This document shows, one piece after another, positions 4,533 through 50,266 of a DNA stretch of 64,000 nucleotides; position 1 is the first letter of the stretch; each line of letters begins with the position of its first letter. The stretch is from an uncultured Candidatus Saccharibacteria bacterium (GTDB lineage: Bacteria > Patescibacteriota > Minisyncoccia > Phycocordibacterales > CAIZLB01), in assembly GCA_964550955.1 (NCBI GenBank), contig CAZKAF010000001.1, positions 99,951-163,950 on the forward strand, given 5' to 3'. The notes beneath the pieces are model-generated. The model made no database searches and had not been told where the DNA came from. It was given only the letters and a program-made list of their open reading frames with translations. The translations under genes and the position numbers were made by a program.

Positions 4533-5210
4533 TTAATTTAAATCTGATATCAATTCCTTCTCTTCTGAACCGTCGGGCCTGAGCTCGAACGTGGCACGGT
4601 CTTGGAATCTGATAATTTCTCCAAGGTTTCTCCCGTTCACTTTCTTCTTCTGGACCTTGAATGTTTCCGGGGCTTCCAGTCCGATTACGACCATCGGCAC
4701 CGAAAGTATGTTGCTGAGAGGGGCGAGGTATCTGCAAATTTTTTCATATTCTCCAACCGCGCTATCGAAAGCGCCCGCTTTTTTCAGACTTGCTGTGGCG
4801 CAAATCACGATTCCGACTTTTGTTTCGATTGCTTTCTTCACGTGGTTCATCTCGCTGGCAAGCACGGGCTTTAAAAGATTCCATGCAATCGCTTCGCCAT
4901 GATTGAAGCCGACTTCGATCGAAATGCTATCCTTGGCAAAGTCGAGCCTCCACTTGTTTCCAGTATATCCTTCTTGTTGAAAAATAGGGGATTCTTTCTG
5001 CCATCCTTTCTCCTCGAGCCTTTCCCTGAGGAGGTCGTTTATTGCGTACGAAAGGCTCATTTTGTTCGAATACTTCTCAGTCTGCTTTCGAATCATGTCC
5101 ATGTCGGTAATGCTTGAAATCGCATCCAGGACCTCCTGATAAAGGGCTGAGTAGGTTTCTTCTTTGAGGATGATGTCGCCTTGCCTATGGGGCTTAATTA
5201 CGTATTTCAT
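4533..5210 (-). CDS. type II restriction endonuclease, BglII/BstYI-like fold
   Basis: 225 aa. The segments EVGFNHGEAIAWNLL...KVGIVICATASL...ILSVPMVVIGLEAP align with the BglII core EVQFSNYPF...KVAIIITKG...VFDVPIRLVGLIE. Divergently paired with a C5-methyltransferase. Confidence 0.5.
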   Translation of the reverse strand: MKYVIKPHRQGDIILKEETYSALYQEVLDAISSITDMDMIRKQTEKYSNKMSLSYAINDLLRERLEEKGWQKESPIFQQEGYTGNKWRLDFAKDSISIEVGFNHGEAIAWNLLKPVLASEMNHVKKAIETKVGIVICATASLKKAGAFDSAVGEYEKICRYLAPLSNILSVPMVVIGLEAPETFKVQKKKVNGRNLGEIIRFQDRATFELRPDGSEEKELISDLN

Positions 5211-5279
5211 GACTATATAACACCTCTAAGGATAGATCAAGATTGATCAATTGTCCATTAAATGATACTATTCTGGCAT

Positions 5280-6521
5280 ATGAAAAAGTCGGCCAAGAAG
5301 ACTATAAAGGTTGTTGAATTGTTCGCGGGAGTAGGAGGATTCAGGGTCGGCTTTGACCGAGCTTCTGGTGCCGATAAGGGCTACGACGTCGTCTGGAGCA
5401 ATCAGTGGGAGCCGGGCACAAAAACCCAGCATGCTTCGGATGTATACGTTGCTAGATTCGGAGAAGGCGGTCATTCGAATGAGGACATACAGGAAGTTTC
5501 TACGGATAAGATTCCGAATCACGACATGCTCGTCGGCGGATTCCCGTGCCAGGATTACTCAGTTGCCCGCACGTTGAGCCAGTCCGCTGGGCTAGGGGGC
5601 AAGAAGGGCGTTTTGTGGTGGTCCATTCATAGAATCTTAAAGGAGAAGGGAAAGAATTCGCCATCATTCTTGATGCTTGAAAATGTCGACCGGCTTTTAA
5701 AGTCTCCTGCGTCCCAGAGAGGGAGAGACTTTGCCGTGATGCTCGCCTCGTTGGCTGACTTGGGATATGCAGTTGAATGGAGGGTCATCAATGCGGCGGA
5801 TTATGGCATGCCTCAGCGAAGAAGAAGGGTGTACATACTCGGCTACAAGAAGGGAACTCCTCTGTATAAGGAATTGGCGAAGACTAATGTCGTCGAATGG
5901 CTCAATGCGAAAGGGGTGCACGCCGAAGCTTTTCCCGTGAGGAGCGAATCAAATTTAAAGACTTTCATTTTGGAAGGCGACCTTGCTGACATCACCAAGG
6001 ATTTTAATGCGAAAGATGCTTTTCAGACAGCCGGCGTGATGATTAATCGGATTGTTCATACGTTTAAGGCCGTTCCTGCGTACGAAGGAAAGCTGGCCAA
6101 GCTGAAAGATTTCCTTTTGCCTGATAAGCAGGTTCCAGAAGATTACTTTATAAACGACGAGGCGATGGCTGAATGGAAGAGGCAGAAAGGCGGAAAGAAA
6201 GAAAAACGAACAAGCAAAAGCGGATTCGAGTATCATTACAGCGAAGGCCCGATGGCGTTCCCGGATTCTCTCGATAAGCCGTCACGAACTATTGTCACGG
6301 GGGAAGGGGGCTCGACGCCTTCTCGATTCAAGCACGTTATACAAACAAAGTCTGGAAAATATCGAAGGCTTACTCCTGTGGAACTTGAACGCTTGAATAT
6401 GTTTCCAGACGGTCACACTGAAGGACCTTCCGCTGTCAGGCGCGCGTTCTTCATGGGAAATGCTTTGGTTGTCGGCATTGTTACGAAGCTGGGGCAGGAG
6501 ATTTTGAGGAGGGTTGGTTAA
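5280..6521 (+). CDS. DNA (cytosine-5)-methyltransferase
   Basis: Motif I FAGVGGF, motif IV PCQDYSVA and motif VI ENV are present, with a C-terminal target-recognition region. The track start at 5262 is also possible. Confidence 0.9.
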   Translation: MKKSAKKTIKVVELFAGVGGFRVGFDRASGADKGYDVVWSNQWEPGTKTQHASDVYVARFGEGGHSNEDIQEVSTDKIPNHDMLVGGFPCQDYSVARTLSQSAGLGGKKGVLWWSIHRILKEKGKNSPSFLMLENVDRLLKSPASQRGRDFAVMLASLADLGYAVEWRVINAADYGMPQRRRRVYILGYKKGTPLYKELAKTNVVEWLNAKGVHAEAFPVRSESNLKTFILEGDLADITKDFNAKDAFQTAGVMINRIVHTFKAVPAYEGKLAKLKDFLLPDKQVPEDYFINDEAMAEWKRQKGGKKEKRTSKSGFEYHYSEGPMAFPDSLDKPSRTIVTGEGGSTPSRFKHVIQTKSGKYRRLTPVELERLNMFPDGHTEGPSAVRRAFFMGNALVVGIVTKLGQEILRRVG

Positions 6522-33894: not shown

Positions 33895-35154
33895 TCATTC
33901 CGCCGCTTCTCCCGTCTCTGCTCCGCTTGGCGGAGCGGACTGCATGTTCTTGATGATGATGTCTATGCTCTCGGGCTCTATCTCTGACACGGTTATGTAA
34001 GACGGAACGTTGAGCATTTCCTTCTTGATCTCGATGGCCTTGGTTCCGGATGCGAAGTCCTTGGCATCGACTCGAATCTCGAGCTTCGTGGCGTCGATGA
34101 GGCTGATGTCCCTGCTTTTTCCTTGCAGCACGACATTGACTTGCCTGGTGCTGGTCTTGCTCTCGATTTCGAGTCCCGAAGGAAGAAGCTGGAACGACAG
34201 CGGAACCGTATATTCCTTCTTGATGACTCCGGTCTGGACGAATAGGAAAATCCACAGGATGGAGGCGACGGAAAGCGCCAAGGCTTTCGTGCCCAGATTG
34301 CTCAGGAAGAAATAATGCCAGAAGCTCGTATGCGCCTTTTCTTCCTCGCCCGTAAGCTTCTTGAGCAATTCCCGGAGCGCGTCTTCCTTCATGACCGTGC
34401 CCTTTCCTTGTTCATATGCGGTTATGGTTCCTCGCTCTTCCGAAACGGCGATGGCAATGGCGTCAGTATCTTCCGTGACGCCGGCTGATGCCCGGTGCCT
34501 CGTGCCCGCCTTTCTGTATCCGGTATATTCTCGGGCGAGCGGCAGATGAACTCCGAAAAGCTTGATCGCGTCGTGCTCGATGACGATGGCGCCGTCATGC
34601 CCGGACGAATTCGTGTCGAAGATGCTGAGAATGATTTCTTTCGTCACTTCGCCGCCGAGCCGCTGTCCGCCCTCGATGAGGTCGTCAAGCTCCTGCTTGC
34701 CGGGAAACACGATTATCCCGCCGATTCTTTTCTCCGCCATGTATAAGAGCGCGTCGGCAATCTCGCCGGACGTGCCCTTGCTGATCTGCTTGGCCGAACT
34801 GAACAGGTCGCGCTGGCCAGTGACGATCCACTTGAAGAATTTGCGGATTTCCCGCTGAAAGACGATGGCGATGATGATGAACGTCAGCGTCGAGAGAGGC
34901 TGCAGGATGGAGCGGGTGAGCGAGAGGTTGAGGTTCTGCGACAGGAAGCTGACCGCCATGAGAACGAGCGACACTCCGGCAACGAAATACGAGCGCGTCT
35001 GCTTGACGAACAGCAGGACGATGTAGATGGCGAGAGCCACGAGGGCGATATCTATCACTTCTCGAAACGTTATGTTTTGGAAGGCGATTCCTATGTTCGA
35101 GAAAGAGCTCGCGACGGATGCGAGCTGGAATGATGAGATAAGGTCCTGATACAT
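33895..35154 (-). CDS. cdaA: diadenylate cyclase CdaA fused to a YbbR/CdaR-like domain region
   Basis: Three N-terminal TM helices. DAC motifs SSGHDGAIVI...GTRHRASAGVTEDTDAIAIAVSEERG. A further TM helix and YbbR-like repeats make up residues 280-419. Confidence 0.75.
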   Translation of the reverse strand: MYQDLISSFQLASVASSFSNIGIAFQNITFREVIDIALVALAIYIVLLFVKQTRSYFVAGVSLVLMAVSFLSQNLNLSLTRSILQPLSTLTFIIIAIVFQREIRKFFKWIVTGQRDLFSSAKQISKGTSGEIADALLYMAEKRIGGIIVFPGKQELDDLIEGGQRLGGEVTKEIILSIFDTNSSGHDGAIVIEHDAIKLFGVHLPLAREYTGYRKAGTRHRASAGVTEDTDAIAIAVSEERGTITAYEQGKGTVMKEDALRELLKKLTGEEEKAHTSFWHYFFLSNLGTKALALSVASILWIFLFVQTGVIKKEYTVPLSFQLLPSGLEIESKTSTRQVNVVLQGKSRDISLIDATKLEIRVDAKDFASGTKAIEIKKEMLNVPSYITVSEIEPESIDIIIKNMQSAPPSGAETGEAAE

Positions 35155-35480: not shown

Positions 35481-35512
35481 AACAAAGATACAGCTCCTTT
35501 AAAACCATGGTT

Positions 35513-35563
35513 CTTCGCCACAGCACAAAGCTCTTTATCTGAGGGCTCCGTGCTGTGGCGAAG
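35513..35563 (+). promoter_or_regulatory. strong hairpin in the putative 5' leader of the DGR target gene
   Basis: CTTCGCCACAGCAC ... GTGCTGTGGCGAAG: 14-bp perfect stem with a 23-nt loop. Confidence 0.5.
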
Positions 35564-35623
35564 AGTCCAGCGAACCAAACCGCATCCTTATGGGTGCACA
35601 TCAAATAGAACATCGATAACGGT

Positions 35624-36319
35624 ATGAAACCGATTACGACAGGACAGAGAGAGCAATTCGGAACCGTCGTCAAAGACGCGGCCCGCAAAGCGGCTGAAGA
35701 AGGGGTCACCGAACTTGAACAGGGTGGTGCTCTCGACGGCGACAGCATCCAGCGCGTCCTCGAAAAAGGAGGTGATCTGGCTGCCAAGCTGAAAGCGTTC
35801 GTGAAAACGACGCTTGCCGAAATGGCGGAAAGCATCCGCGGATGCCTCAAGTTAATCTCGGGAGCGGAAACGCTTACCCTTGATCCGACTGACGGCAAGA
35901 AGACCATCGCAAGGGCCGGCGACCTGTTCTTTTATCTCGACGGTGACTTCAAGGCCTATGGCTGCGACGTCCCCGGAAAACCGAGCCAGGGCGGTCCCGT
36001 CCAGGTTCACGAGATGGTCAAGGACGGTACCTTCGCCCAGATTTTTGGCGGATTGAGTGACAATCTCGATTCGTTGTGTCTGGAGCAGGACCAGATCATT
36101 CAGTTTGTCGAGAAGCACCGCAAGTGGCTTCGCACGGATGGGTACGGCACCTTCTTCCTGTTCAAGGTGAACGGAGAAGGCTTCGTTGCGAGCGTGCCCG
36201 TGCCCTCCGGTGGCGGCCTCTGCGCCGACGTCTCTCGCTTCTCGCGCGGCCTTGTCTGGTCTGCCCGGGATCGTCCTCGCGTGGTGGTTCCGCAACCCCT
36301 TGTGCCTCAGGTTCCCTGA
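35624..36319 (+). CDS. DGR target (variable) protein; C-terminal ~40 aa encoded by the VR
   Basis: 231 aa. The last 120 nt form the VR. The TR counterpart encodes Asn (AAC) where the VR encodes varied residues. Confidence 0.75.
   Translation: MKPITTGQREQFGTVVKDAARKAAEEGVTELEQGGALDGDSIQRVLEKGGDLAAKLKAFVKTTLAEMAESIRGCLKLISGAETLTLDPTDGKKTIARAGDLFFYLDGDFKAYGCDVPGKPSQGGPVQVHEMVKDGTFAQIFGGLSDNLDSLCLEQDQIIQFVEKHRKWLRTDGYGTFFLFKVNGEGFVASVPVPSGGGLCADVSRFSRGLVWSARDRPRVVVPQPLVPQVP
36181..36300 (+). repeat. DGR variable repeat (VR)
   Basis: About 120 bp aligned to the TR at 36668-36787; about 25 mismatches, every one at a TR adenine. Conserved 3' end GTGGTGGTTCCG. Confidence 0.85.
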
Positions 36320-36667
36320 ACCTTTGGCTCTTAGTCCCTTTGACCCTTTGTCCGCGTATGAAAATGCGTTGGCAGAGGTCAGGGGGATTTTTTTTATGCA
36401 GCGATGTCCGCGTTTACTAAAATCGCCGGCCGAGTGTATACTGAACATGCAATGCATAGACGCGTCTCGGCCACGGCTTGGATGCCATACTTGCGTCAAT
36501 GCAGGCTCGAGAATTTTGCCGGACACGTCCTGCAAAAGAGCGGGTCTGTCTTTTCAAATAAAAAATAATTAGTTGGTGCGACAAGCTGAAGGACTTCTAG
36601 GTCCTGCATAAGATTCAGCCCGTCCTGATTGGGCGGGCAGTGTACCAGATGGCTTGCCGCACGAATT

Positions 36668-36787
36668 CTTCGTTGCGAACGTGAACGTGAACTCCGATGG
36701 CAACCTCAACGCCAACGTCAATCGCTTCTCGAACGACAATGTCTGGAATGCCAAGAATCGTCATCGCGTGGTGGTTCCGAAACTCAT
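36668..36787 (+). repeat. DGR template repeat (TR), non-coding
   Basis: Adenine-rich copy of the VR with 13 AAC/AAT codons in the VR frame; not part of a credible ORF. Confidence 0.85.
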
Positions 36788-36798
36788 GATTTCTCTCA

Positions 36799-37161
36799 TC
36801 AAGACATGGTGAGAGTTTTGTTTTGGCGGGATTGCGCCAGAGGGCTTTGCAGTCCTTTTCGCCATCCTCCGAGCATCTTGCCTATTTCCTCAAGCTTCCC
36901 CGAAAGCTCTATGTATTTAGGAGTCGGCATCAGCTTGCTTTCCCATGCCAGCTGCATGAAGAACTTAAGGGCATCCAGCTTCGATATCGTGGTTCCGAGA
37001 ACATGGACTTTTTCTGCCGGCGCCATGTATATGCATGCGAAGCTCAATTCCAGCACTTCGAGAAAGATGCCTTCGATCTTCTGGCCCATGCCGAACCTTT
37101 CGGTTCTCGGGAAATTCCTATGAAGCAATAGCCAGGCTTGGTAGGCTTCCTTTTCTTTCAA
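36799..37161 (-). CDS. avd: Avd (accessory variability determinant), four-helix-bundle protein
   Basis: 120 aa. FPRTERFGMGQKIEG and KLEEIGKMLGGW match the Avd / 23S-rRNA-IVS four-helix-bundle family. TTG start. Lies on the strand opposite to TR and RT. Confidence 0.75.
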   Translation of the reverse strand: MKEKEAYQAWLLLHRNFPRTERFGMGQKIEGIFLEVLELSFACIYMAPAEKVHVLGTTISKLDALKFFMQLAWESKLMPTPKYIELSGKLEEIGKMLGGWRKGLQSPLAQSRQNKTLTMS

Positions 37162-37185
37162 GATTACGCCAGGGGTCGTTTTTGC

Positions 37186-37198
37186 GGGGGGGGGGGGG
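37186..37198. repeat. G13 homopolymer tract in the avd/RT divergent intergenic region
   Basis: gcgggggggggggggggca, seen directly. Confidence 0.8.
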
Positions 37199-37224
37199 CA
37201 GATTCATGGTTTGTATTGTGTAAT

Positions 37225-38223
37225 ATGAAAAAAATGAATATTTCCTACAACGATATCATATCTTTGGAAAATCTCTACGAAGCGTGGGCGGAGTTCGTCA
37301 ACGGCAAGAGACATAAAAGGGACGTGGCCTTGTTTGCATTAAATCTCTCGCACAATATTTTCGCGCTGCATGAGGAGCTGAAGAACAGGACGTATCGGCA
37401 TGGCGGATATAAGGCATTTGCCATCAATGATCCGAAGCCTCGAAGTATCCATAAGGCTCATGTTCGGGACAGGCTTCTGCATCATGCGGTCTATCGAACC
37501 CTGTACAGGTACTTTGACAAGAAGTTCATATTTGATTCGTACTCGTGCAGATACGCCAAAGGGACGCATAGGGCGCTCGGCCGCTTCCGTCATTTTTTCA
37601 ACAAGGTCTCTCACGGCAATCGCCGGACGTGCTGGGTGCTGAAGTGCGACGTTCGAAAATTCTTTGCGTCCATAGATCAGGGAATATTGCTGGACATATG
37701 CAAAAGGCACCTGCCGGACCAGGACATACTCTGGCTCATGCAGGATATCGTCGGCAGCTTTTATAGCACGGAAGCGGGGAAGGGCCTGCCTCTTGGAAAT
37801 CTCACGTCTCAATTGCTCGTAAACGTATACATGAATGAATTTGACCAGCATGCGAAGCATGTCCTCAAGCACCAGCATTACATTCGCTATGCCGATGATT
37901 TTGTCATCATGCATCACGATAAAAGCGAGCTGCAGAAGGCGCTTCCGAAAATAGGGGAATTCCTGCTCGATAATCTGAAATTATCGCTGCATCCCGACAA
38001 GGTGTTCATCAAGACGTTCGCGTCGGGCGTTGATTTTCTTGGCTGGGTCCATTTTCAAGATCATAGGGTTTTGCGAAATGCCACGAAGAAGAGGATGCTT
38101 AGAAATTTGAACGGAGGGGCCGCGAAAGAGGTCGTCCAGTCCTATCTCGGCCTCCTTTCTCACGGGAACGCGTTTGGGCTGAAAAGGAGGATCAAGGCCT
38201 TGATGCGCAAAACCATTGATTAG
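37225..38223 (+). CDS. DGR reverse transcriptase
   Basis: RT domains with the IRYADDFVIM (YADD) box. The N-terminus LENLYEAWAEFVNGKRHK is typical of DGR/retron RTs. ATG 37225 is preferred over the track start 37138, which would run through the G-tract. Confidence 0.9.
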   Translation: MKKMNISYNDIISLENLYEAWAEFVNGKRHKRDVALFALNLSHNIFALHEELKNRTYRHGGYKAFAINDPKPRSIHKAHVRDRLLHHAVYRTLYRYFDKKFIFDSYSCRYAKGTHRALGRFRHFFNKVSHGNRRTCWVLKCDVRKFFASIDQGILLDICKRHLPDQDILWLMQDIVGSFYSTEAGKGLPLGNLTSQLLVNVYMNEFDQHAKHVLKHQHYIRYADDFVIMHHDKSELQKALPKIGEFLLDNLKLSLHPDKVFIKTFASGVDFLGWVHFQDHRVLRNATKKRMLRNLNGGAAKEVVQSYLGLLSHGNAFGLKRRIKALMRKTID

Positions 38224-38267
38224 AGCCGTTAAATTCTGGTTCCTAGATTAGTTTAGCGTCATAATGC

Positions 38268-38296
38268 TTGACAAACACATACAAATATAGTACTAT
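38268..38296 (+). promoter_or_regulatory. sigma70-type promoter
   Basis: TTGACA, 17-nt spacer, TACTAT; ends about 15 nt upstream of ATG 38312. Confidence 0.5.
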
Positions 38297-38311
38297 ATAC
38301 CTATACAAATT

Positions 38312-39055
38312 ATGACCAATTTAACTATCTCAACAGAAATGATCAAATCAACATTCATCTACGCAGGAGCGGTTCTTATTGTATTTGGTGCATATTTTTC
38401 AACTCCAATTACGGCAAGCGCTGCTACGTACCTAATCGACCTTTCAGGCAATGGCTGCGGCTCGCAATGCGCCGAACTTCAGGAATATTTGAATTCGCTT
38501 AACAGCAATAGCAATTCGAATTCGTCATCTACAAGCTCGACTGATGCGAATGGTTCTGGCGATCAGGCCACAGTTCCGACGTATCCGAACCTTCAGTACC
38601 AGTATTCGTCATCTACGCTGGCGTATTATCAGAGAAACCAGCAGCCGACGACTTCCAACTTGTATGCATATCCGACGTATTCGTACTTTGCGAATCCGGC
38701 AGGCGCGTATCCAAGTTCATACCCAGGCACTGCGTATCCGAGTGGTGCTGCATATCCGGCTCAGAACCAATATAACCCATACGGCCAGTACAATCAGTAC
38801 GGCTCGACAGGCTATGTGCCGTACCCTTCGCTTCAGTACGTGTATAACAATGGCAAGGTGGCTGGTCCTTCGACCTCCACATACGCTGCTCCCAACTATG
38901 CAGCGGAGCTGTACATGCTAGGCCGGTACCCGTCCTATGGCGCGCCGACATACGGCACTCAGTCCCAGCAGCCTTACCCTTATTACGGAACGCAGGCTTA
39001 CAATGCTCCGTTCTCGATGCAGCCTTCAGGCTTCGTCATGACTTCTGGAAAGTAA
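38312..39055 (+). CDS. secreted low-complexity Tyr/Pro/Gln/Ser-rich protein
   Basis: N-terminal TM/signal; CGSQC pair; motif YPSLQYVYNNGK; C-terminus GFVMTSGK. Paralog of the next gene. Confidence 0.55.
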   Translation: MTNLTISTEMIKSTFIYAGAVLIVFGAYFSTPITASAATYLIDLSGNGCGSQCAELQEYLNSLNSNSNSNSSSTSSTDANGSGDQATVPTYPNLQYQYSSSTLAYYQRNQQPTTSNLYAYPTYSYFANPAGAYPSSYPGTAYPSGAAYPAQNQYNPYGQYNQYGSTGYVPYPSLQYVYNNGKVAGPSTSTYAAPNYAAELYMLGRYPSYGAPTYGTQSQQPYPYYGTQAYNAPFSMQPSGFVMTSGK

Positions 39056-39145
39056 GATCGAGCTGCGATAAAATCTCTTTAAAATGCTTGCGCGCGATTG
39101 AACTGTCGTTGCAAAAGCAGGGGAAGAGTGATATAAAGTGAGCAC

Positions 39146-39724
39146 ATGAAGAAATTAACTTTCATTTCAGTGCTCGCTTTTGTCGTTTTCGGGTTCGCCT
39201 TCGCGGCGCGGCTGGAAGCTTGTTCAGTGTCGTACGGGTATGACTACGGCTGCGGAACGGGATATTACGGCGGCTCCTACGACGGTTACTATGGCGGAAA
39301 TGGCTACGGATACGGAACCGGATATGGAGACCAGTACAATTATGTGCAGTATCCAAGCCTGACATACGTCTACTATCAGGATCCCGGACCAAGGAACACC
39401 ATGAGCGACTACAGCTACAACTATGTGCAGTATCCGAATCTGACATACGTGTACCATGACGGCAGGACCTCTCGTCCGGCAGGCAACACGGGATATTCTT
39501 CATATCCTTCGCAGTATCCGCAGACAGGCGGCGGGAACAACAACCCGTATTATTCGCAGCAGCCTGCATATCAGCAGCAGCCGGCGTACCAGTATCAGCA
39601 GCCTGCATATCAGGCATATCAGAATCCGTATCAGTACGGGTACGGATATGCCGGCAATTCTTACGGTCAATACAGCCAATACTCCGCATACGGTGCCGGT
39701 TTCATCATGACGTCGGGGTACTAG
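39146..39724 (+). CDS. secreted low-complexity Gly/Tyr/Gln-rich protein (paralog)
   Basis: Signal peptide; Cys pair; YVQYPSLTYVYYQD and YVQYPNLTYVYHDG motifs; C-terminus GFIMTSGY. Confidence 0.55.
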   Translation: MKKLTFISVLAFVVFGFAFAARLEACSVSYGYDYGCGTGYYGGSYDGYYGGNGYGYGTGYGDQYNYVQYPSLTYVYYQDPGPRNTMSDYSYNYVQYPNLTYVYHDGRTSRPAGNTGYSSYPSQYPQTGGGNNNPYYSQQPAYQQQPAYQYQQPAYQAYQNPYQYGYGYAGNSYGQYSQYSAYGAGFIMTSGY

Positions 39725-39863
39725 AAGTTTTTGGACAGAAGCCCTGTCGCTTCGGCGGGCGGAACTCTTCATGAATTCATAAAAAACTTTTTAGTTTTTG
39801 AAAAATGTCCTCTAATGGGCATTTTATTTTTTGTAGAAATGGCCGCGTGCTATAATCGATGGA

Positions 39864-41255
39864 ATGCAGAACAATAATTCACCCTGGTTGCAGCAATTGA
39901 AAAGAACGCGAGCCGTCGACACGCTGCTCGGGGACATGAGAACGGACATTGCCATCATCGGCGCCGGCATCGCGGGCGTTTCAACCGCATACTTCACCCT
40001 GAAGAATACTGACAAGCAGGTCTTGCTCATCGAGGCGAGCAAGGTCGCGCATGGCGCGACGGGCCACAATGCCGGGCAGATCGTCTTCGAATTCGAAAAA
40101 GAGCTTCACGCGCTTACCGAGACATACGGCCTGCAGCTTGCCGCCGATGCGGAACGGTCAGTCCGAAGCGCCTGGATGCTCATCGAGGAAATGTATCAGG
40201 ATGCCAATCTTCAAACCCCCATGTCTTCGTTTTTGGGATACAACGGGTACGCGACTGTCCCTCGAGTCATCGAAGAATTGAAAAATAACGCCCTCCGGGT
40301 CGAAGCGGGCATTCCTGTTGCCCCTGTTTACATAGCCGAGCACGCTGAAGGGCTCGACCAGATACCGCGGGCATACAAGGATTTGTACAACATTGTCCCT
40401 CATGAAGACGTCCTGTCCCTGCTTGAGACCAAGGACAAGCAGTATATCGCCGTGATGTCCGAAAGGAAGGGCTGCGTGAACAGCGCCCTGCTCGTCGAGG
40501 AAATCGTCGGCTATCTTCTTTCAAAATATGCGGGCAGGTTCGTCTTGGCCGAAGAGAGCCCTGTCAGGGAAATAGTTCTCGATCATGACTCCGGAATGCT
40601 CAAGGTGTTCAGCCATTCCGTATACGCAAAGAAAGTGGTCCTGTGCACGAACGGCTTCGAAAGATTCAAGATCACGAACCTGGTCGGAGGAAATATCGAC
40701 ACGAAGTTCCATCATATGGTCATCGGCAATGTCGGGTACATGGCAGGCTATCTTGAAAAGCTGGATCATCCTCCGATTGCCTTGCAGTACCATGACAAGG
40801 AACAGATAGATGCCGGTCGCGCGGAAGTCTCATATATGGAAAAGCCGTACATGTACCTGACAAGGAGGCCGTATGAGGTCGAGAAAAATGAAAGCCATAA
40901 CCTGGTTTGCGTGGGCGGCCCGGAACAGAACATCGAGGACACGACCTCGTATCGCAAGGAAAGCGAGATGATGGCGGAATCAATCGACCAGATCGAGCAT
41001 TTCATCCATAAGACATACGCGCATGCTCCGAAAGACAAGATCGATTTCAAGTTCAAATGGCACGGCCTGATGGGCTACACGCCGACGAACATGCGAGTCA
41101 TCGGAGAGGAACCCAAGAACGGGGTATTGATGTATAATCTGGGGTGCAACGGCATCGGCATTCTTACCTCGATTTACGGCGGCAAGAAGATATCGGAAAT
41201 ACTTCGAGGCGATGCGCTGCCGCCGTCGCTTTTTGATCCGAGGATCTCCTACTAA
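39864..41255 (+). CDS. FAD-dependent oxidoreductase (DAO/glycine-oxidase-like)
   Basis: N-terminal Rossmann DIAIIGAGIAGVSTAY; 463 aa. Confidence 0.75.
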   Translation: MQNNNSPWLQQLKRTRAVDTLLGDMRTDIAIIGAGIAGVSTAYFTLKNTDKQVLLIEASKVAHGATGHNAGQIVFEFEKELHALTETYGLQLAADAERSVRSAWMLIEEMYQDANLQTPMSSFLGYNGYATVPRVIEELKNNALRVEAGIPVAPVYIAEHAEGLDQIPRAYKDLYNIVPHEDVLSLLETKDKQYIAVMSERKGCVNSALLVEEIVGYLLSKYAGRFVLAEESPVREIVLDHDSGMLKVFSHSVYAKKVVLCTNGFERFKITNLVGGNIDTKFHHMVIGNVGYMAGYLEKLDHPPIALQYHDKEQIDAGRAEVSYMEKPYMYLTRRPYEVEKNESHNLVCVGGPEQNIEDTTSYRKESEMMAESIDQIEHFIHKTYAHAPKDKIDFKFKWHGLMGYTPTNMRVIGEEPKNGVLMYNLGCNGIGILTSIYGGKKISEILRGDALPPSLFDPRISY

Positions 41256-41258
41256 ACC

Positions 41259-41885
41259 ATGCTTGAATTATTCGTTGGAAAAATTGACGTGCTCGCTCCG
41301 CTCTTGCTCAGCTTGGGCCTTTGGGTCTATGCGTTCGTATTTTTGCTTGCCATCCTGGAATCGGCTCCCGTGCTCGGGACATTCACTCCGGGCACGCTGA
41401 TGCTCCTGTTCATAGGGTTGCTCTGCTCGCAGGGGCACATACTGGTACTGCCTGCCATCCTTTTCGCCACGCTCGGCGGCATTGCCGGAGACAGCGCGGG
41501 GTACTACCTTGGCAGATACGGCAGGAATTTCATAAAGGAAAATAAGGGCTTGCTTCGCACGGGGCATTTGGATATTGGAAAGACGTATTTTTACAAGCAT
41601 GGCGGAAAGAGCGTCTTCCTGGGCAGGTTCATCGGGCCGATTCGGCCGATTATTCCTCTGATTGCCGGCATGGTCCACATGTCATTTAGGAGATTCTTCG
41701 TCTTGAACGTCGCGAGCGCGCTGCTTTGGGCTTCGCTCTATATCGCGTGCGGCTTCCTGTTCGGCAATCATATCGAATTCATCGACTCGCTGATCTCAAA
41801 GATCGGCCTCGTCACCACTCTCATCATCGGCTGCGCCGCCATCTATTTTTTCAATAAATACAGAAAGGAGAAGGTCTTGGGATAA
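41259..41885 (+). CDS. DedA/TVP38-family membrane protein
   Basis: 208 aa, TM helices, and a GRFIGPIRPIIPLIAGM-type motif. Confidence 0.75.
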   Translation: MLELFVGKIDVLAPLLLSLGLWVYAFVFLLAILESAPVLGTFTPGTLMLLFIGLLCSQGHILVLPAILFATLGGIAGDSAGYYLGRYGRNFIKENKGLLRTGHLDIGKTYFYKHGGKSVFLGRFIGPIRPIIPLIAGMVHMSFRRFFVLNVASALLWASLYIACGFLFGNHIEFIDSLISKIGLVTTLIIGCAAIYFFNKYRKEKVLG

Positions 41886-41988: not shown

Positions 41989-42519
41989 TTGTTCGTGCAT
42001 ATGCATGGGCGTACTCGAAACAGTCAATTTAAAATCCGTCAGTCGGGCATCGTCTCGCTGACTTTGGTCTTGTTGCTCACCGGAATCATCTCATCGGCTG
42101 TTTTTGGCCTGATTGAATCCAATACCCCGTATCTCCTTTTGAAGAGAGATATCGACATGCATCGAACTCGTTTAAGGGCGAGCGTTTCCTGTCGTGACAT
42201 GGCAATATCGCATATACATGAGAATGCGGATTTTGACGCGGTATTTTCTTTGGAAAACGTGAGGCGCGTGTTTGCTGACATTGCGCTGGCGGAAGGCAAA
42301 TCCGCCTGTTCAGTGCTCGGCATCGAAAGGATTCAGCCTGTCGACGCGTCATTGCTCGGCGACTCGGCAGTCGACCTCTCGTCCGCATACAGGTTGTTCA
42401 TTATTCGGACTTCCGGCGAAACGGCAGGGGATAGCGCAAGGCTTCATCTGGAAACTGGCGTGGCTTTCGACGAGCGGATGATGATCGTCTGGAAGCGGTC
42501 ATTGGAACTTCAGATTTAG
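41989..42519 (+). CDS. hypothetical protein with N-terminal TM helix (possible pilus-associated)
   Basis: GIVSLTLVLLLTGIISSAVF near the N-terminus; located upstream of a pilin gene. Confidence 0.4.
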   Translation: MFVHMHGRTRNSQFKIRQSGIVSLTLVLLLTGIISSAVFGLIESNTPYLLLKRDIDMHRTRLRASVSCRDMAISHIHENADFDAVFSLENVRRVFADIALAEGKSACSVLGIERIQPVDASLLGDSAVDLSSAYRLFIIRTSGETAGDSARLHLETGVAFDERMMIVWKRSLELQI

Positions 42520-42580: not shown

Positions 42581-43042
42581 ATGCAAAAAAGATACATAAC
42601 AAGCGGAGGCTTCACGTTGCTTGAGGTCCTCATGGTTATCGGCATTTTGGCGATACTCGCGGGCGTCGTGCTGACCGCGGTTAATCCCGCCCGGCAGTTC
42701 AAGGTAGCGCGCGATTCGCAGAGAAATGCGAACATCGTCACCGTGCTGAACGCGATTGGCCAAAACATGACGGACCATGCCGGCAATTTCATATGCGAGG
42801 GGGTCTTGGCCGAATTGCCTGCCGCGAAGGAGGGGATGGGAAGCGATGCCGGATTTGACATCGCGCCCTGCCTGGTGCCTGACTACATATCCGCATTGCC
42901 ATATGACCCGGGCAAGGAATCCGCATACTATGTCGATGAGACTGACTATGAGACCGGATATTACATAAGCCGGGATGTCGAGGGGAGGGTGACCGTATAT
43001 GCGGACGGCGAGATTCAGCCGGATTTGAAAACCGTGCGATAG
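42581..43042 (+). CDS. type IV pilin/pseudopilin (prepilin, class III signal)
   Basis: MQKRYITSGGFTLLEVLMVIGILAILAGVVL: G/F cleavage site with Glu at +5. Confidence 0.8.
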   Translation: MQKRYITSGGFTLLEVLMVIGILAILAGVVLTAVNPARQFKVARDSQRNANIVTVLNAIGQNMTDHAGNFICEGVLAELPAAKEGMGSDAGFDIAPCLVPDYISALPYDPGKESAYYVDETDYETGYYISRDVEGRVTVYADGEIQPDLKTVR

Positions 43043-44050: not shown

Positions 44051-44559
44051 TCCCCTGTAGCTCAGCGGTAGAGCAATCGACTGTGAACGTGTCCTGCCTT
44101 TGATATACTCCAAAGTATGTTGAAAAAGAGGACATATGCTGATCGTGCGCCATATATGATTGAAGCTGTCAGAAAGCGGAGAATAAAGCTTCGCAAGATG
44201 GCCAGAGAGTATAAAGGCGGCAAATGTGAGATTTGCTAAATTCGCGAAGGCATAACGCAGCTTCCGGTACGAAAGTCCGGTCGCAAATAAGGTGAATTGC
44301 TGGAAGTCCTGATTCTCATGTCAGGATAATCAGCAGCCAAGCTCGGCAAGAAATTGCCTTGAAGGTTCAGAGACTATCCCTTCGGGGAGTAGTCGGATGC
44401 AGGTAGCAATGCAAAGCGTTCGACGAAGCGCCTTACGTCTAAACATGTATAAGTGCAGCAATGCAAAATTCATGCATGACGATGATATAGTCCACACCGT
44501 CAGTAATGATGGATAAACGTGTAATCGATTGGTCGTAGGTTCGATCCCTACCGGGGGAG
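44051..44559 (+). tRNA. tRNA gene split by a group I intron in the anticodon loop (anticodon UGU/Thr or GUU/Asn depending on exact junction)
   Basis: 5' exon: TCCCCTG-TA-GCTC-AGCGGTA-GAGC-A-ATCGA-CT... 3' exon: ...TGTAA-TCGAT-TGGTC-GTAGG-TTCGATC-CCTAC-CGGGGGA-G. The acceptor stem pairs across 435 nt. Confidence 0.7.
44083..44519 (+). ncRNA. group I self-splicing intron (no ORF)
   Basis: R element TTCAGAGACTAT (44366-77) and S element GATGATATAGTCC (44481-93) supply the P7 pairing GACTA/TAGTC. A G precedes the candidate 3' splice sites, a U precedes the 5' splice sites. Confidence 0.65.
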
Positions 44560-44561
44560 CA
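44542..44561 (+). repeat. attL: 20-bp core (tRNA 3' end)
   Basis: cgatccctaccgggggagca, identical to 52691-52710. Confidence 0.7.
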
Positions 44562-46137
44562 TTGAAGGATGAGAAGGCACGAAAGTGCCTTTTTGTCTTT
44601 GTGGCATAAGGGTATTATCTGGTTCGTAGCACTCTGAAAGCCTCGGCATCCATTCCACGAAATACTTAGCCAATAAAGTTAAATCCGACTTTATTTCTAG
44701 GCTGTTTTGCCAGAAGTTCGTAAACAATTGGTTGAACAAAACTCGCTTGTCGTCATTCTCTGCCATCTCATAGATTGCATCCGCGTTAAACGCCAATTCA
44801 TGGACAATGAGAGCTAGATTCTGGTACTCATCAGACTGATTATTAATACGAACCAGGGCGCTTTGGAAATTCTCTTCCTCAGCTGAAATATGGGCTATTT
44901 GGCGCTCACAGAATTCAAGCGGAACTGTACCTTCGAGCTTAGCCATATAAATTTTATCCTTCTTGGTTCGTATCATACCTAAGTGAGTGTTTAGACGATG
45001 AATTTCATTCTCGCGTTCTCCAATTTTCTCTTTGAACTCGCAACAAATAACATCCTCAATCCATTTGAGTAGGTCTTTGTTCTTGGGTGCAATTTTCTTG
45101 AATATGGGTCTAAGTTGCTCCTCAACCTTTTCTTCGCGGATATAGGTCTTTTTAGGGCATTTACGAGAGGTCAGGTGGTTATTGCAATGTCCGTACCAAT
45201 GACTCTTTTGCTTCTCCCAAGTCAAAGATTTGCCGCAGCCTTCACAGACAATCATTGTCTTGAATAGCGGGTTGTGAATATTGAATCGCGGCTGATTTAT
45301 CTTTCGCTTTAATATCTTCTGCACTTTATCAAATAGGTCTCTTCCAATTATTGGCTCATGCTTACCGCTGTATTTCTGGCTTTTCCATAAGAAAGAACCG
45401 TAATAGAAAGGGTCTTGAATTAAGACATGCAATCTCTTATGAAGAACTCTTTTTCCGCTTCTGGCGCGCAGACCACGACTGTAAAGCTCCTCTTCTAATT
45501 TTGTTAAAGAGTAGTTTCCAGTGGCGTATAAATCAAACATGTCGCGCATAAGCGGGGCAACACCCTTATCAATAACATGTATCTTCTTTCCCTTGTCTCC
45601 TATGGTCATATAGCCCAAAGGTGGTTTTGTTGGCAGCCAACCTTCAGCTATCTTTTCAACTTGCCCTTTCTTAACTTCTTCAGAAAGGTTAGCGATATAT
45701 TTCTTAGCTAATACGATTTCAATATCCCATCTGAACTTTTCATCAGACTTGGCATTTTTATGAATTACTAAGTTCTGTTTTACAAAGTGGATATATCTGT
45801 TTTCGTCTTGCTCAAGCCAATCATTAATAACAACAGCTTCCTTAAGATTTCTTGTAAGCCTGTCCACTTTCTCACAGAGTAAGTGAGATATATTATTCTT
45901 TACAAGAAATTCCATCATTTCCCCAAAGACCTTTCTTTGTTTCGAGCCGCTGGCGCTTTCAGCAATACAGAATTCTTTAATAAGGTTGAATCCCTTTTGG
46001 TCAGAACGTTCCTTTAGTAATTTACTTTGAGCGGGAAGGGAATAACCTGTTTCCTCCTGTTCTCTGGTAGAGACACGGCAGTACATGGCTGCGCGATTAT
46101 TCGCCCCAAGTGATGGGGCTTGTTTCTGGGTCTTCAT
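44548..46137 (-). CDS. large serine recombinase (integrase)
   Basis: N-terminal resolvase catalytic domain (AAMYCRVSTREQ). Recombinase domain. Zinc ribbon CEGCGK...CPKK. Coiled-coil. The last 4 codons overlap the tRNA 3' end. Confidence 0.85.
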   Translation of the reverse strand: MKTQKQAPSLGANNRAAMYCRVSTREQEETGYSLPAQSKLLKERSDQKGFNLIKEFCIAESASGSKQRKVFGEMMEFLVKNNISHLLCEKVDRLTRNLKEAVVINDWLEQDENRYIHFVKQNLVIHKNAKSDEKFRWDIEIVLAKKYIANLSEEVKKGQVEKIAEGWLPTKPPLGYMTIGDKGKKIHVIDKGVAPLMRDMFDLYATGNYSLTKLEEELYSRGLRARSGKRVLHKRLHVLIQDPFYYGSFLWKSQKYSGKHEPIIGRDLFDKVQKILKRKINQPRFNIHNPLFKTMIVCEGCGKSLTWEKQKSHWYGHCNNHLTSRKCPKKTYIREEKVEEQLRPIFKKIAPKNKDLLKWIEDVICCEFKEKIGERENEIHRLNTHLGMIRTKKDKIYMAKLEGTVPLEFCERQIAHISAEEENFQSALVRINNQSDEYQNLALIVHELAFNADAIYEMAENDDKRVLFNQLFTNFWQNSLEIKSDLTLLAKYFVEWMPRLSECYEPDNTLMPQRQKGTFVPSHPSMLPR

Positions 46138-48231: not shown

Positions 48232-48414
48232 ATGCCTTCAAAAACACCCCAATTTTATACCCTGAAAGAGGCTTCTGAATTACTCAAAGTAAGTGTAAGG
48301 AGTCTATACCGTTATATTCAGACCAAAAAGTTGGTGGCAACAAAGGTTGGCTATTGGCGAATAAGCAAAAATGACTTAGACAGTTTTATTAAGGATGGCT
48401 CAAACATTAAATAA
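48232..48414 (+). CDS. excisionase-family HTH DNA-binding protein (MerR-superfamily Xis-like)
   Basis: YTLKEASELLKVSVRSLYRYIQTKKLVATKVGYWRISKNDLDSFI. The ATG at 48232 is preferred over the track start 48190. Confidence 0.55.
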   Translation: MPSKTPQFYTLKEASELLKVSVRSLYRYIQTKKLVATKVGYWRISKNDLDSFIKDGSNIK

Positions 48415-50266
48415 AATGAAACTGTATCTTAAATCATTGGAGCTAACAAATTACCGTACTTTCGGTAGTGAAACCCTAGATATAGATAAAGAGATAACTC
48501 TTCTTGTCGGGGCTAATGAATCAGGCAAGACTAATCTTCTGGATGCACTAGAGCTGCTTGATGTTGAGAAGACATTTAATGATTCGGATACAAAAATTAA
48601 CTCTGAATACTCCGCAAAGAATTACGAGCCATATCTAAGTTATAGAATGGAGCTGACTGAAGAAATGCAAACTAAGCTTAAAAGGTATGCAAGATACTTT
48701 GAAAAGAATAACGAGGTTTTTATAAATCGTAATGGGAGCGATATTGACGATATAACAGTAGATACGGTAAATGACGTAAGCTATGATTTCCCAATTGCAT
48801 ATAGGAACGTATCAGATGTAGAACAGAAACTCATTAGCAAGAACGGCATTGTGGCTCTTTCCCCGCAGAGTTACACACTTACTTCCATTAATTATTTCAA
48901 GAACTCAAAACTTTTCAAAGACGGAAAGGTTATAAAGATTGAAGATAAAGAAAGAAACAGGCTCCTAACTGCAAAAATAAAAGAAATTGTCTTGGAAAAT
49001 ATGCCATCTGTGTTTCTCTGGAAGTATTCAGATGCCTACTATATTCCCAAAGATGTACCGATTGATTTTTATAATCAGAAGGACAAATTTCAGTCTGTAA
49101 TAAATCTCTTTAAGTTGGGGGACATAGATGAAGATAAGATTGTTACACACCTAACGAATAGAGACAGTGTATACATAATCAATTTTTTGAATACTTTGTC
49201 TAAGAAAGTATCACTTGTGCTGAATAACACTTGGAAACAGAGGAAAAATATAAAGCTCAATCTTCATTTTAAAGAAACTTGGATAGAGATTCTGGTAGAG
49301 GAGAAGGACTATCAAATTGACCCAAATAAAAGAAGTGAAGGGCTACAGTGGTATCTTTCGTTCCTTATCAATTTTCGTTCAAAACTACAGACTCTCAAAA
49401 ATAATATAATCTTGTTTGACCAGCCTGGAGACAAGCTTCATCCTGGCGGACAAAGAGACCTTATGGAAAGATTTGAAGAGATGGCTGAATTTAATCAGAT
49501 TGTTTATTCAACTCATACGCCGTTTACAATAAATAAGGATTATCCAGAAAGAGTTAGGCTTATAACTAGACCCGAGGATGACAGTAAGATTATCAACAGG
49601 CTAAGTAACAGAGAGATTTTTAAGGATGAGTTATTGAGAAGCTCACTTGGTTTAAGTTTGTCTGATGTATCTCCTGTGGCTGAGAAAAATATTCTTGTTG
49701 AAGGTTTGTTGGATAAGCTCATATTAACGGATTTTATAGAGAAATTGAAAAAGTTTAAGTTCAGTATCAAGCTGAACCAGTCTGTTATCATTCCAGCGCA
49801 CAGCGCTTCGAAGATTCTTTATTATGCTAATTTTATTAAATCAAACGGATTAGACGTTTTAGCGATATTTGATGGAGACGCAGCAGGGAAGGAGGCAATT
49901 GTAGAAAATAAAAAGAAGAAGGTTTTGGAAAGTAGGGAAATCTTACTAGTGTCTTTAGGCAAAGGGACTGCACAAACTATAGAAGACATTATCCCGATAA
50001 AAATTATTACTGATTCTATTAATGAAATAGGAGTGCTTATTGATAAAAATAAATTTACTCCAATTGCATTAACGACAACACCAGTAATGCCACTTATAAA
50101 GGGTCATTTCGCAAAACTTGGAATGGATTTTTCAGAATCAGATAAACATCTGTTTTCAATTAAGGTATTGGAAAAGTTTAAGAAGATGCCCGTTAAGGAA
50201 ACGGATTTAAAGGGTAGTCTGTCAGGACTCTATGAATTAGTTAAAGAAATAAAAAAGAAGTTATAG
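48395..50266 (+). CDS. OLD-family nuclease: N-terminal ABC-type ATPase + C-terminal TOPRIM domain
   Basis: P-loop LLVGANESGKTNLL. Walker B/D-loop ILFDQPGDKLHP. H-loop YSTHTP. TOPRIM ILVEGLLDK...IFDGDAAGKEA. Confidence 0.7.
   Translation: MAQTLNKMKLYLKSLELTNYRTFGSETLDIDKEITLLVGANESGKTNLLDALELLDVEKTFNDSDTKINSEYSAKNYEPYLSYRMELTEEMQTKLKRYARYFEKNNEVFINRNGSDIDDITVDTVNDVSYDFPIAYRNVSDVEQKLISKNGIVALSPQSYTLTSINYFKNSKLFKDGKVIKIEDKERNRLLTAKIKEIVLENMPSVFLWKYSDAYYIPKDVPIDFYNQKDKFQSVINLFKLGDIDEDKIVTHLTNRDSVYIINFLNTLSKKVSLVLNNTWKQRKNIKLNLHFKETWIEILVEEKDYQIDPNKRSEGLQWYLSFLINFRSKLQTLKNNIILFDQPGDKLHPGGQRDLMERFEEMAEFNQIVYSTHTPFTINKDYPERVRLITRPEDDSKIINRLSNREIFKDELLRSSLGLSLSDVSPVAEKNILVEGLLDKLILTDFIEKLKKFKFSIKLNQSVIIPAHSASKILYYANFIKSNGLDVLAIFDGDAAGKEAIVENKKKKVLESREILLVSLGKGTAQTIEDIIPIKIITDSINEIGVLIDKNKFTPIALTTTPVMPLIKGHFAKLGMDFSESDKHLFSIKVLEKFKKMPVKETDLKGSLSGLYELVKEIKKKL

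Follow-up and report, generated by a model that had tools for sequence, protein, structure and literature searches.

This study concerns a pair of adjacent genes, designated g1 and g2, found in a stretch of 64,000 nucleotides from an uncultured Candidatus Saccharibacteria bacterium (assembly GCA_964550955.1, contig CAZKAF010000001.1, positions 99,951 to 163,950). The whole stretch is called the window below, and coordinates refer to its first nucleotide as position 1. Our main finding is that g1 and g2 are real, paralogous genes whose products share export-type N-termini, a conserved aromatic motif, a conserved C-terminal tail and predicted disorder. As judged from sequence comparisons, they form a small, previously undescribed family in a narrow clade of Paceibacteria-type bacteria of the Candidate Phyla Radiation (CPR), and they are independent of the diversity-generating retroelement (DGR) that lies beside them. 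The function that we favour, tentatively and at somewhat below an even chance, is that of a two-component, self-associating, Tyr-rich extracellular or cell-surface material in which the tail would serve assembly or retention. Export itself, self-association, a division of labour between the two proteins and the role of the tail are the parts of this reading that we infer. CPR bacteria (Patescibacteria) are mostly uncultured, and their cell-surface construction and host adhesion are poorly known; g1 and g2 are concrete candidates for components of a surface matrix, or of an adhesive, within one lineage of Paceibacteria.

Gene g1 (38312..39055, + strand) encodes a pre-protein of 247 amino acids that comprises a signal peptide, a small N-terminal domain with a Cys pair, a spacer rich in Ser, Asn and Thr, a Tyr-rich motif region and the tail. 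Gene g2 (39146..39724, + strand) encodes a pre-protein of 192 amino acids with a signal peptide, a Cys loop, a Gly/Tyr region, two 27-residue repeats, a Gln/Tyr/Pro/Gly region and the tail. All parts of g1 and g2 mentioned below, promoter-like sites included, lie on the + strand. Both open reading frames (ORFs) stand where an earlier, sequence-only reading of the window had placed them, and the observation made there holds as a whole. Because the frame, the N-terminus, the motifs and the tail are kept at low identity, and because the tail codons of different members differ synonymously (GGC/GGT/GGA, TTC/TTT, ACT/ACG/ACA and TCT/TCG/TCC/TCA), comparison of the sequences indicates that g1 and g2 are real genes, and also that selection on the tail is acting at the amino-acid level.

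The start codon of g1 is backed by conservation of residues 1-12 in two relatives (P0002 and P0003). Upstream of it lies a promoter-like site (38268..38296) made of TTGACA, 17 nt and TACTAT, which matches 10 of 12 consensus positions; a gap of only 15 nt separates this site from the ATG, and a Shine-Dalgarno sequence is not evident. The good promoter and nearly leaderless start attributed earlier to g1 are thus borne out. TTGACA and TAnnAT are kept upstream of g1 in five of six lineages (the window, L001, L006, L009 and L012; related loci are designated by L numbers). Gene g2 is preceded by an extended -10-like box, TGaTATAAA (39129..39137), that ends 8 nt before its ATG. This box was not listed by the consensus promoter scan and was recognised by cross-lineage conservation: a sequence of the form (G/A)TG(A/G)TATAA stands at the same distance in five of six lineages. 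A similar box is found at about 39845-39855, ahead of the DAO-family gene that follows the pair, with equivalents at the same positions in L001, L005, L006, L009 and L012. In both g2 and the DAO genes an extended -10 sequence, TGnTATAA(A/T), lies 7-9 nt before the ATG without a Shine-Dalgarno sequence. These boxes suggest that g2 is transcribed from a promoter of its own into an mRNA with little or no leader and, taken together, that transcripts of this kind are frequent in the lineage. A terminator-like hairpin with a T-run (39802..39835, + strand) separates g2 from the DAO-family gene; it is a single consensus match, no more than shuffled sequence would be expected to give. At the corresponding place L001 has another hairpin, which is GC-rich.

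Relatives of g1 and g2 are few. A word-indexed search of 5.8 billion proteins returned only three relatives for each of them, to which a profile search added two, and a profile search with HMMER across 1.84 billion cluster representatives yielded 26 relatives at E<=1e-3. All 26 carry a signal peptide, at least one Cys pair, one to four copies of the aromatic motif, a variable low-complexity stretch and, usually, the tail. When uncalled and neighbouring genes read from contigs were included, 34 distinct members were obtained, 16 of g1-type and 18 of g2-type. Carriers amount to two of 185,579 GTDB species genomes, and two scans of Joint Genome Institute metagenomes with back-translated motifs gave no confirmed relatives. 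Searches of Pfam (E<=0.01 over 36 members; E<=0.1 for g1 and g2), NCBIfam, PHROGs and PDB sequences gave no match for family members, apart from a weak Pfam hit of one g1-type member to New_glue (Drosophila salivary glue, E 0.005), dismissed as almost certainly stemming from the composition of the Ser/Thr/Asn-rich spacer. Nothing marks the pair as phage or plasmid cargo, as no PHROG matched and tblastn of g2 against 50,697 phage records and of g1 against 72,556 plasmid records found none. A description of the family was not found in full-text literature, and neither were the literal motif strings; a Patescibacteria paper that was examined deals with a protein of the host.

Paralogy of the two proteins, proposed in the sequence-only reading, received firm support from profile-profile comparison: hhalign aligned the g1-type and g2-type profiles along a core that comprises three motif copies, at 99.4% probability (E 4.2e-21). 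Pairwise Smith-Waterman comparison of g1 and g2 was only weakly significant against shuffled sequences (z 2.5; 17 of 1000 shuffles), and their identity outside the tail is about 30%; the conclusion that they are paralogous is therefore drawn from the profiles together with the shared architecture. Orthologues are 32-43% identical to the g1 and g2 of the window (over the longer protein), whereas identity is 60-81% for the flanking CdaA, DAO, DedA and pilin genes, with the exception of DedA (VTT) in L009 (40%). On account of this difference, g1 and g2 are fast-evolving genes in closely related genomes.

An N-terminal signal or transmembrane (TM) segment and an early Cys pair had been noted in both proteins, and both features were found again. 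By hydropathy, each protein has one hydrophobic segment of signal-peptide or TM length, located at the N-terminus and followed by a conserved small-x-Ala (A-x-A-type) site. The predicted signal peptide of g1 (38312..38425, aa 1-38) would be cleaved after A-S-A, and (A/T)-x-A precedes a conserved T-Y-x-x-D in most g1-type sequences examined. Next comes the g1-specific N-domain, TYLIDLSGNGCGSQCAELQEYLNSLNS (38426..38506, aa 39-65), with a CxxxC pair (C49/C53). In 17 sequences, Y40, G46 and Y59 of this domain do not vary, and conservation reaches 90% or more at D43, G48, C49 and C53; the g1-type consensus is T-Y-x-x-D-x-x-G-N-G-C-G-x-x-C-A-x-L-x-x-Y-L. The predicted signal peptide of g2 (39146..39220, aa 1-25) would be cleaved after L-E-A, so that the mature protein would begin with Cys26; A25-C26 shows no variation among 19 g2-type sequences, and the Cys pair is C26/C36. 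In lipoproteins the signal peptide ends in a lipobox, of the pattern [LVI][ASTVI][GAS]C. We considered g2 as a lipoprotein and judged it unlikely: in g2-type sequences, position -2 is occupied by A, D, E, F, L, N, S or Y and is often charged, and an A-x-A site for signal peptidase I fits better than a lipobox; g1-type sequences have no Cys at the site. The N-termini of g1 and g2 are thus of a kind that would direct export, and the conserved Cys pairs fit an extracytoplasmic location.

The composition of the proteins is as extreme as had been described (Tyr/Gly/Gln/Asn/Pro-rich and of low complexity). Protein g1 contains 14.2% Tyr, 13.4% Ser, 8.5% Gly, 8.5% Pro, 7.7% Asn and 7.3% Gln; g2 contains 21.9% Tyr, 15.1% Gly, 9.9% Gln, 8.3% Ser and 6.2% Pro. 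The Tyr background in 42 long ORFs of the window is 3.5%, and Tyr makes up 16-25% of the mature g1 and g2 chains. Charged residues are scarce in these chains (10 of 209 in g1, 9 of 167 in g2), and the fraction of Q, N, S, Y, G and P in 60-residue windows peaks at 0.77 in g1 and 0.90 in g2. AlphaFold2, run on 8-sequence alignments, gave a mean predicted local distance difference test score (pLDDT) of 42.9 for g1 and 40.6 for g2, with values below 50 over g2 residues 22-192 and most of g1. The models contain the signal helix only, plus a few short helices and bridges in g1, among them a weak helix at residues 52-64, and show no beta-solenoid. The mature proteins are therefore predicted to be intrinsically disordered beyond the signal helix. 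On an aggregation-propensity scale, the hot spots of the mature chains include the conserved motifs and the tail.

With Q/N/S/Y/G-dominated chains, few charges and predicted disorder, g1 and g2 fall into the prion-like, low-complexity sticker-spacer group, which is a compositional class and not a homologous family. The earlier description as prion-like or amyloid-like stands for the composition and goes no further: no beta-solenoid was modelled and no amyloid family model matched. The likeness to the S/Y/G/Q-rich domains of FUS-type proteins lies in the Tyr content, the Gly/Ser/Gln/Asn/Pro spacers, the near absence of charge and the predicted disorder. In contrast with FUS-type proteins, which are cytoplasmic or nuclear, g1 and g2 are bacterial and of exported type, and have Cys pairs, a strictly conserved motif and a C-terminal tail.

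The aromatic YPSLxYVY motif reported earlier is indeed shared by the two proteins; the number of copies in g1 had been underestimated, as a second, weaker copy, YPNLQYQY (38582..38605, aa 91-98), precedes YPSLQYVY (38822..38845, aa 171-178), in which P172 and Y176 are invariant in 17 sequences. In g2, YNYVQYP(S/N)LTYVY occurs twice, 27 residues apart, in tandem repeats YNYVQYPSLTYVYY and YNYVQYPNLTYVYH (39335..39457) that have an 81-nt period and contain two 42-nt copies with 86% identity; the core motifs are YPSLTYVY (39350-39373, aa 69-76) and YPNLTYVY (39431-39454, aa 96-103). Each protein therefore has two copies of YPxLxY[VQ]Y. Two copies of the form YP...Y.Y arise by chance in 0.2% (g1) and 1.2% (g2) of composition-preserving shuffles. 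The motif is conserved in homologues and takes the family-wide form Y-x-Q-Y-P-x-x-x-Y-x-Y, often followed by Q-(N/D)-P, with fast-evolving Gly/Ser/Gln/Asn/Pro spacers between copies.

Both proteins end in the octapeptide singled out in the sequence-only reading: the last 8 residues are GFVMTSGK in g1 (39029..39052, aa 240-247) and GFIMTSGY in g2 (39698..39721, aa 185-192). In composition-preserving shuffles, GF.[MLI].S falls within the last 9 residues with a frequency of 6e-5 (g1) and 1e-5 (g2). The tail is conserved in relatives, being present in 28 of the 34 members (16 of 16 g1-type and 12 of 18 g2-type), with the consensus G(27/28)-F(28/28)-[T11 V7 I5 M3]-[M16 I6 L4]-T(22)-S(24)-[G18 I6]-x, the last residue being variable. 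Its length is 8-9 residues in 26 of 28 members, with two exceptions of 5 and 7, and it ends 5-6 residues after the Phe. Motif and tail thus withstand the refutation put forward in the sequence-only reading, namely absence from every homologue. In mature g2 no stretch is more hydrophobic than the tail, and in mature g1 only one is. Hydropathy analysis detects in it neither a TM helix nor a basic cluster, and there is no hydrophobic segment beyond residue 45, where the maximum 19-residue Kyte-Doolittle mean is 0.3 in g1 and 0.7 in g2. A sub-clade shows a divergent pattern: at two loci (L012, 2211-3493, and L020, 91-1204), g1 ends in GF(T/V)(I/L)TSI(I/V)(K/R) and the adjacent g2 is tail-less, stopping after its last motif (...YVYNR). 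This joint change could reflect co-evolution of both tails.

Conservation of this kind admits a second explanation for the tail, namely that it is a true sorting or processing signal, read by some enzyme encoded elsewhere in the genome (a transpeptidase, a PDZ C-terminal protease or similar) that would cleave it or link the protein covalently to the wall or to a lipid. The fixed distance from the C-terminus and the near invariance of Phe and Gly across paralogues that are about 30% identical speak for it, as do selection at the amino-acid level and the co-variation of g1 tail type with g2 tail presence between sub-clades (L012 and L020). A short conserved motif at a fixed C-terminal distance on exported proteins is also what characterises the LPXTG/sortase, PEP-CTERM/exosortase, PGF-CTERM/archaeosortase and GlyGly-CTERM/rhombosortase systems. 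Unlike all the known signals of those systems, however, the tail has no TM helix and no basic cluster, spans only 8-9 residues and belongs to one family. LPXTG is absent from g1 and g2, and no model of a C-terminal sorting domain matched them (Pfam E<=0.1; NCBIfam E<=0.01), PEP-CTERM, PGF-CTERM and GlyGly-CTERM included (NCBIfam E<=0.01). In 205 kb of related DNA, with 1251 stop-to-stop frames of 60 aa or more, the tail pattern was found on g1 and g2 orthologues and on no other protein, yet a sorting signal is normally shared by several unrelated proteins of a genome. Nothing recognisable as a sortase, exosortase, rhombosortase, prepilin peptidase or C-terminal protease is encoded by the window's 67 long ORFs, and no candidate enzyme is conserved beside the pair. 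Because TM helix and basic cluster are both missing, the tail is not a signal of the sortase or exosortase type; the earlier proposal finds no support for a sorting signal in the usual sense, and the cognate sorting system that it called for was not encountered in the window. A signal of some other kind is a possibility to be kept in mind, unlikely as we consider it.

The core of the tail, (S/G)-G-F-(T/V/I)-(M/L), also resembles the cleavage site of type IV (class III) prepilins, G|F-T-L-(I/L)-E. The substrates of prepilin peptidase are N-terminal leaders, which it processes on the cytoplasmic side of the membrane. In g1 and g2 the motif is C-terminal on a chain of Sec-exported type, lacks Glu+5 and is not followed by a hydrophobic helix; a prepilin-peptidase reading of the tail, suggested by this likeness and by pilin genes nearby, was rejected on these grounds of topology and sequence, and the resemblance is probably fortuitous. 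The pilin models N_methyl and TIGR02532 match a gene of the window at 42581-43042, and neither g1 nor g2.

To return to a two-component surface material, the mechanism that we propose is as follows. Both proteins would be exported by the Sec pathway and their signal peptides removed, giving almost uncharged, disordered chains with a Cys pair near the new N-terminus, which may be capable of forming a disulfide. The Tyr-rich motifs would act as cohesive "stickers" and the Gly/Ser/Gln/Asn/Pro stretches as spacers, and the tail would be a determinant of assembly or retention, not a classical anchor sorted by an enzyme. Protein g1, with its extra folded N-domain and its Ser/Thr/Asn spacer, might serve as base or organiser, and g2, denser in Tyr and Gly and variable in repeat number, as the bulk component. 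The resulting material might be a coat, a glue or a fibre on the surface of small, probably host-attached cells.

Several points weigh against this proposal. Self-association is inferred from composition alone, and the cell-attachment role is a guess from general knowledge of the CPR lifestyle. With alignments of 8 sequences, the failure of AlphaFold to produce a fold neither proves disorder nor excludes a beta-solenoid. Six g2-type members have no tail, and lineage L019 (368-1915) has no g2, its g1 being followed directly by the DAO gene; both the g2 tail and g2 itself must therefore be dispensable. Synteny with the DAO, DedA and pilin-like genes is uninformative on function because the genomes are closely related.

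Known structural proteins provide partial parallels. Plant extensins, glycine-rich proteins, the Bacillus spore-coat proteins CotC/CotU and mussel foot proteins are likewise secreted, Tyr-rich and of low complexity, contain Y-x-Y units and make plausible models of a wall or adhesive material. The likeness to extensins, CotC/CotU and mussel foot proteins is compositional; g1 and g2 are not homologous to these proteins, and no machinery for hydroxyproline, 3,4-dihydroxyphenylalanine (DOPA) or peroxidase chemistry is evident. Curli (CsgB/CsgA) and Pseudomonas Fap (FapB/FapC) fibres offer a parallel in organisation: adjacent paralogous genes encode Sec-exported proteins rich in Gln, Asn, Gly and Ser with few imperfect repeats, of which one would plausibly organise or nucleate and the other supply the bulk. 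The differences are substantial. There is no sequence relation and no match to Curlin_rpt or any other Pfam model; no export genes of the csgEFG or fapDEF type are near g1 and g2 at the loci examined; the host is a CPR bacterium and not a proteobacterium; and g1 and g2 have a Tyr/Pro-based motif, a C-terminal tail and no predicted beta-solenoid. They are thus not curli subunits. A Tyr-rich cell-surface protein of a diatom (PMC4220933) is a further comparable structural or adhesive protein.

A bolder version of the same idea is that GF[TVI][MIL]TS[GI]x-COOH represents a new type of signal, placed at the C-terminus and peculiar to the Paceibacteria clade, for assembly or anchoring, and that g1 and g2 are an organiser and a subunit, in the manner of CsgB and CsgA, that build a Tyr-rich fibre or adhesive. 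We regard this version as rather doubtful. If it were true, the co-variation of the g1 and g2 tails would reflect a direct interaction of tail with tail or of tail with a partner, and these ultra-small cells would coat themselves or attach to their host by means of a Tyr-rich layer. The family is new and very narrowly distributed, and its one unusual feature is the fixed C-terminal GFxMTSGx tail; as a kind, exported, low-complexity, Tyr-rich proteins are broadly familiar. Unless the tail is a new assembly signal the general impact is modest, because the family is very narrow and no new biochemical principle is indicated.

In Gram-positive bacteria, choline-binding and other aromatic repeats hold proteins on the wall. 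The Y-x-Q-Y-P-x-x-x-Y-x-Y units of g1 and g2 might likewise be hairpin-like modules of about 25-29 residues that bind a wall polymer non-covalently, the rest of the chain being spacer. Positional conservation of the aromatic repeats, of which there are 2-4, is in line with wall binding, and so is a neighbourhood that contains glycosyltransferases, an ABC-2 exporter, PG_binding_1 proteins and a DedA/UptA-like homologue of undecaprenyl-phosphate transporters. The argument from the neighbourhood is weak because gene order is simply inherited among close relatives; moreover, CW_binding, SLH, LysM, GW and SH3b models found no match and no folded repeat is predicted. Wall binding is in our opinion rather unlikely.

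Plant extensins and CotC/CotU of Bacillus spore coats are insolubilised by di- or isodityrosine bonds. The same chemistry could be imagined here, with di- or isodityrosine cross-links at Y-x-Y and with a DAO-family FAD (flavin adenine dinucleotide) oxidoreductase as the source of H2O2. Its attractions are the Y-V-Y/Y-x-Y core of every motif copy and the location of the DAO gene, which follows g2 in the window (39864-41255) and comes after the pair in 9 of 10 lineages with readable downstream sequence. The oxidoreductase, however, has no signal peptide, its gene has its own promoter and a terminator-like hairpin separates it from g2, L016 (166-2269) keeps g1 and g2 followed directly by DedA and has no DAO gene, and no peroxidase or laccase is found nearby among the window ORFs examined. 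An oxidatively cross-linked matrix is thus improbable. A putative operon with the DAO and DedA genes was rejected as evidence in view of the conserved promoter box of each gene, the absence of DAO in L016 and the close relatedness of the genomes.

Signals of the RRNPP type are typically exported precursors whose last 5-8 residues are conserved. It might accordingly be asked whether g1 and g2 are precursors of secreted C-terminal peptides (Phr/SHP-type signals or bacteriocin-like molecules), the tail being the active molecule released, as an exported chain with a conserved C-terminal end resembles such precursors. The usual precursors are 20-60 aa long, against 130-270 aa with conserved internal repeats in the present family, the last residue of the tail is variable, and no receptor, Opp or processing genes are linked to the pair at the loci examined; we hold this possibility to be very improbable.

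The sequence-only reading had placed the pair immediately downstream of the reverse transcriptase (RT) gene of a DGR. The position is correct, as the RT stop codon is at 38223 and g1 begins 89 nt further on; the relation that it implies did not survive comparison with other loci. The DGR cassette (35624-38223) is complete: it contains a target gene (35624-36319) with a variable repeat (VR, 36176-36296), a template repeat (TR) of 121 nt (36663-36783), a bAvd-like gene (36799-37161, - strand) and the RT gene (RVT_1; longest ORF 37138-38223). The bAvd-like gene runs against TR and RT, with its 5' end reaching into the longest RT ORF. TR and VR differ at 27 of 121 positions, all of them adenines in TR. 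No further VR was found on either strand of the window (up to 25 non-A mismatches to TR), where only TR itself and the VR at 36176 match, and a repeat search of 35500-39800 detected no copy of TR in g1 or g2. The earlier statement that neither gene contains a VR, and that they are not DGR targets, is therefore correct.

At orthologous loci the pair occurs without RT or Avd in all five cases with readable upstream sequence (L001, L006, L009, L012 and L018). The spacer between cdaA (33895-35154, - strand, upstream of the DGR in the window) and g1 is 162 bp in L001, compared with 3157 bp in the window, and no more than about 45 nt separate the right end of the cassette from the g1 promoter. Given that these orthologous loci have no DGR, the cassette appears to be an insertion of about 3.1 kb between cdaA and g1, specific to this lineage, and the location of g1 and g2 beside it is incidental. 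A functional tie to the DGR, either as extra targets or as accessory factors, has the short distance from RT to g1 in its favour and little else; with one VR, located in the target gene, and with five loci where the pair exists on its own, it is extremely improbable, and neither a DGR target nor a DGR accessory gene could be recognised in g1 or g2. The comparison thus corrects a mis-association that is easy to make. Even less tenable, with a probability as good as nil, is the notion that g1 and g2 are mere chance reading frames in DNA of biased composition. In its favour, other frames that overlap them lack stop codons as well (125 aa at 38544-38921, + strand; 175 aa at 39162-39689, - strand). 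Comparative data refute it: in more than 10 lineages the signal peptide, the Cys pair, the motifs and the tail are kept in frame, indels come in multiples of three, and codons change synonymously.

The g1-g2 pair is found in 10 of 11 lineages with readable context, including two in which a gene has been inserted between its members. The two genes are adjacent in the window and in L001, L006, L009, L012, L015, L016 and L020; a methyltransferase gene separates them in L005 and an NYN gene in L018. Upstream neighbours vary, and cdaA precedes the pair in some loci only. In one Logan contig (L002, 1-5836), cdaA-g1-g2 is followed by g2-g1-cdaA as a perfect inverted duplication, most likely an assembly artefact. 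Downstream of the DAO gene, the window contains a DedA/VTT gene (41259-41885; UptA-like in NCBIfam), a conserved hypothetical gene (41989-42519; 2374-2955 in L016) without Pfam or NCBIfam match, and the type IV pilin-like gene mentioned above (42581-43042), 2.9 kb downstream of the pair, whose product carries GGFTLLEV. The product of the hypothetical gene has a pilin-like N-terminus, SG|IVSLTLVLLL (RG|FIALFFVV in L016), without Glu+5, and may be a minor pilin.

Further along the window, a full-length group I intron (RF00028, 67.6 bits in Rfam) was detected at 44195-44513, within the region 44051-44560. When introns were allowed, ARAGORN identified in this region a tRNA-Thr(UGU) split by a 437-nt intron; a standard tRNA scan found none in the whole 64 kb. 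The site adjoins a gene for a large serine recombinase (44548-46137, - strand), and because the two are directly side by side it may be a hot spot for integration. Defence-type genes are present at 4533-6521 and 48395-50266, and include a BglII-like restriction endonuclease paired with a C5 cytosine methylase, and an OLD-family nuclease (AAA_15 plus OLD TOPRIM).

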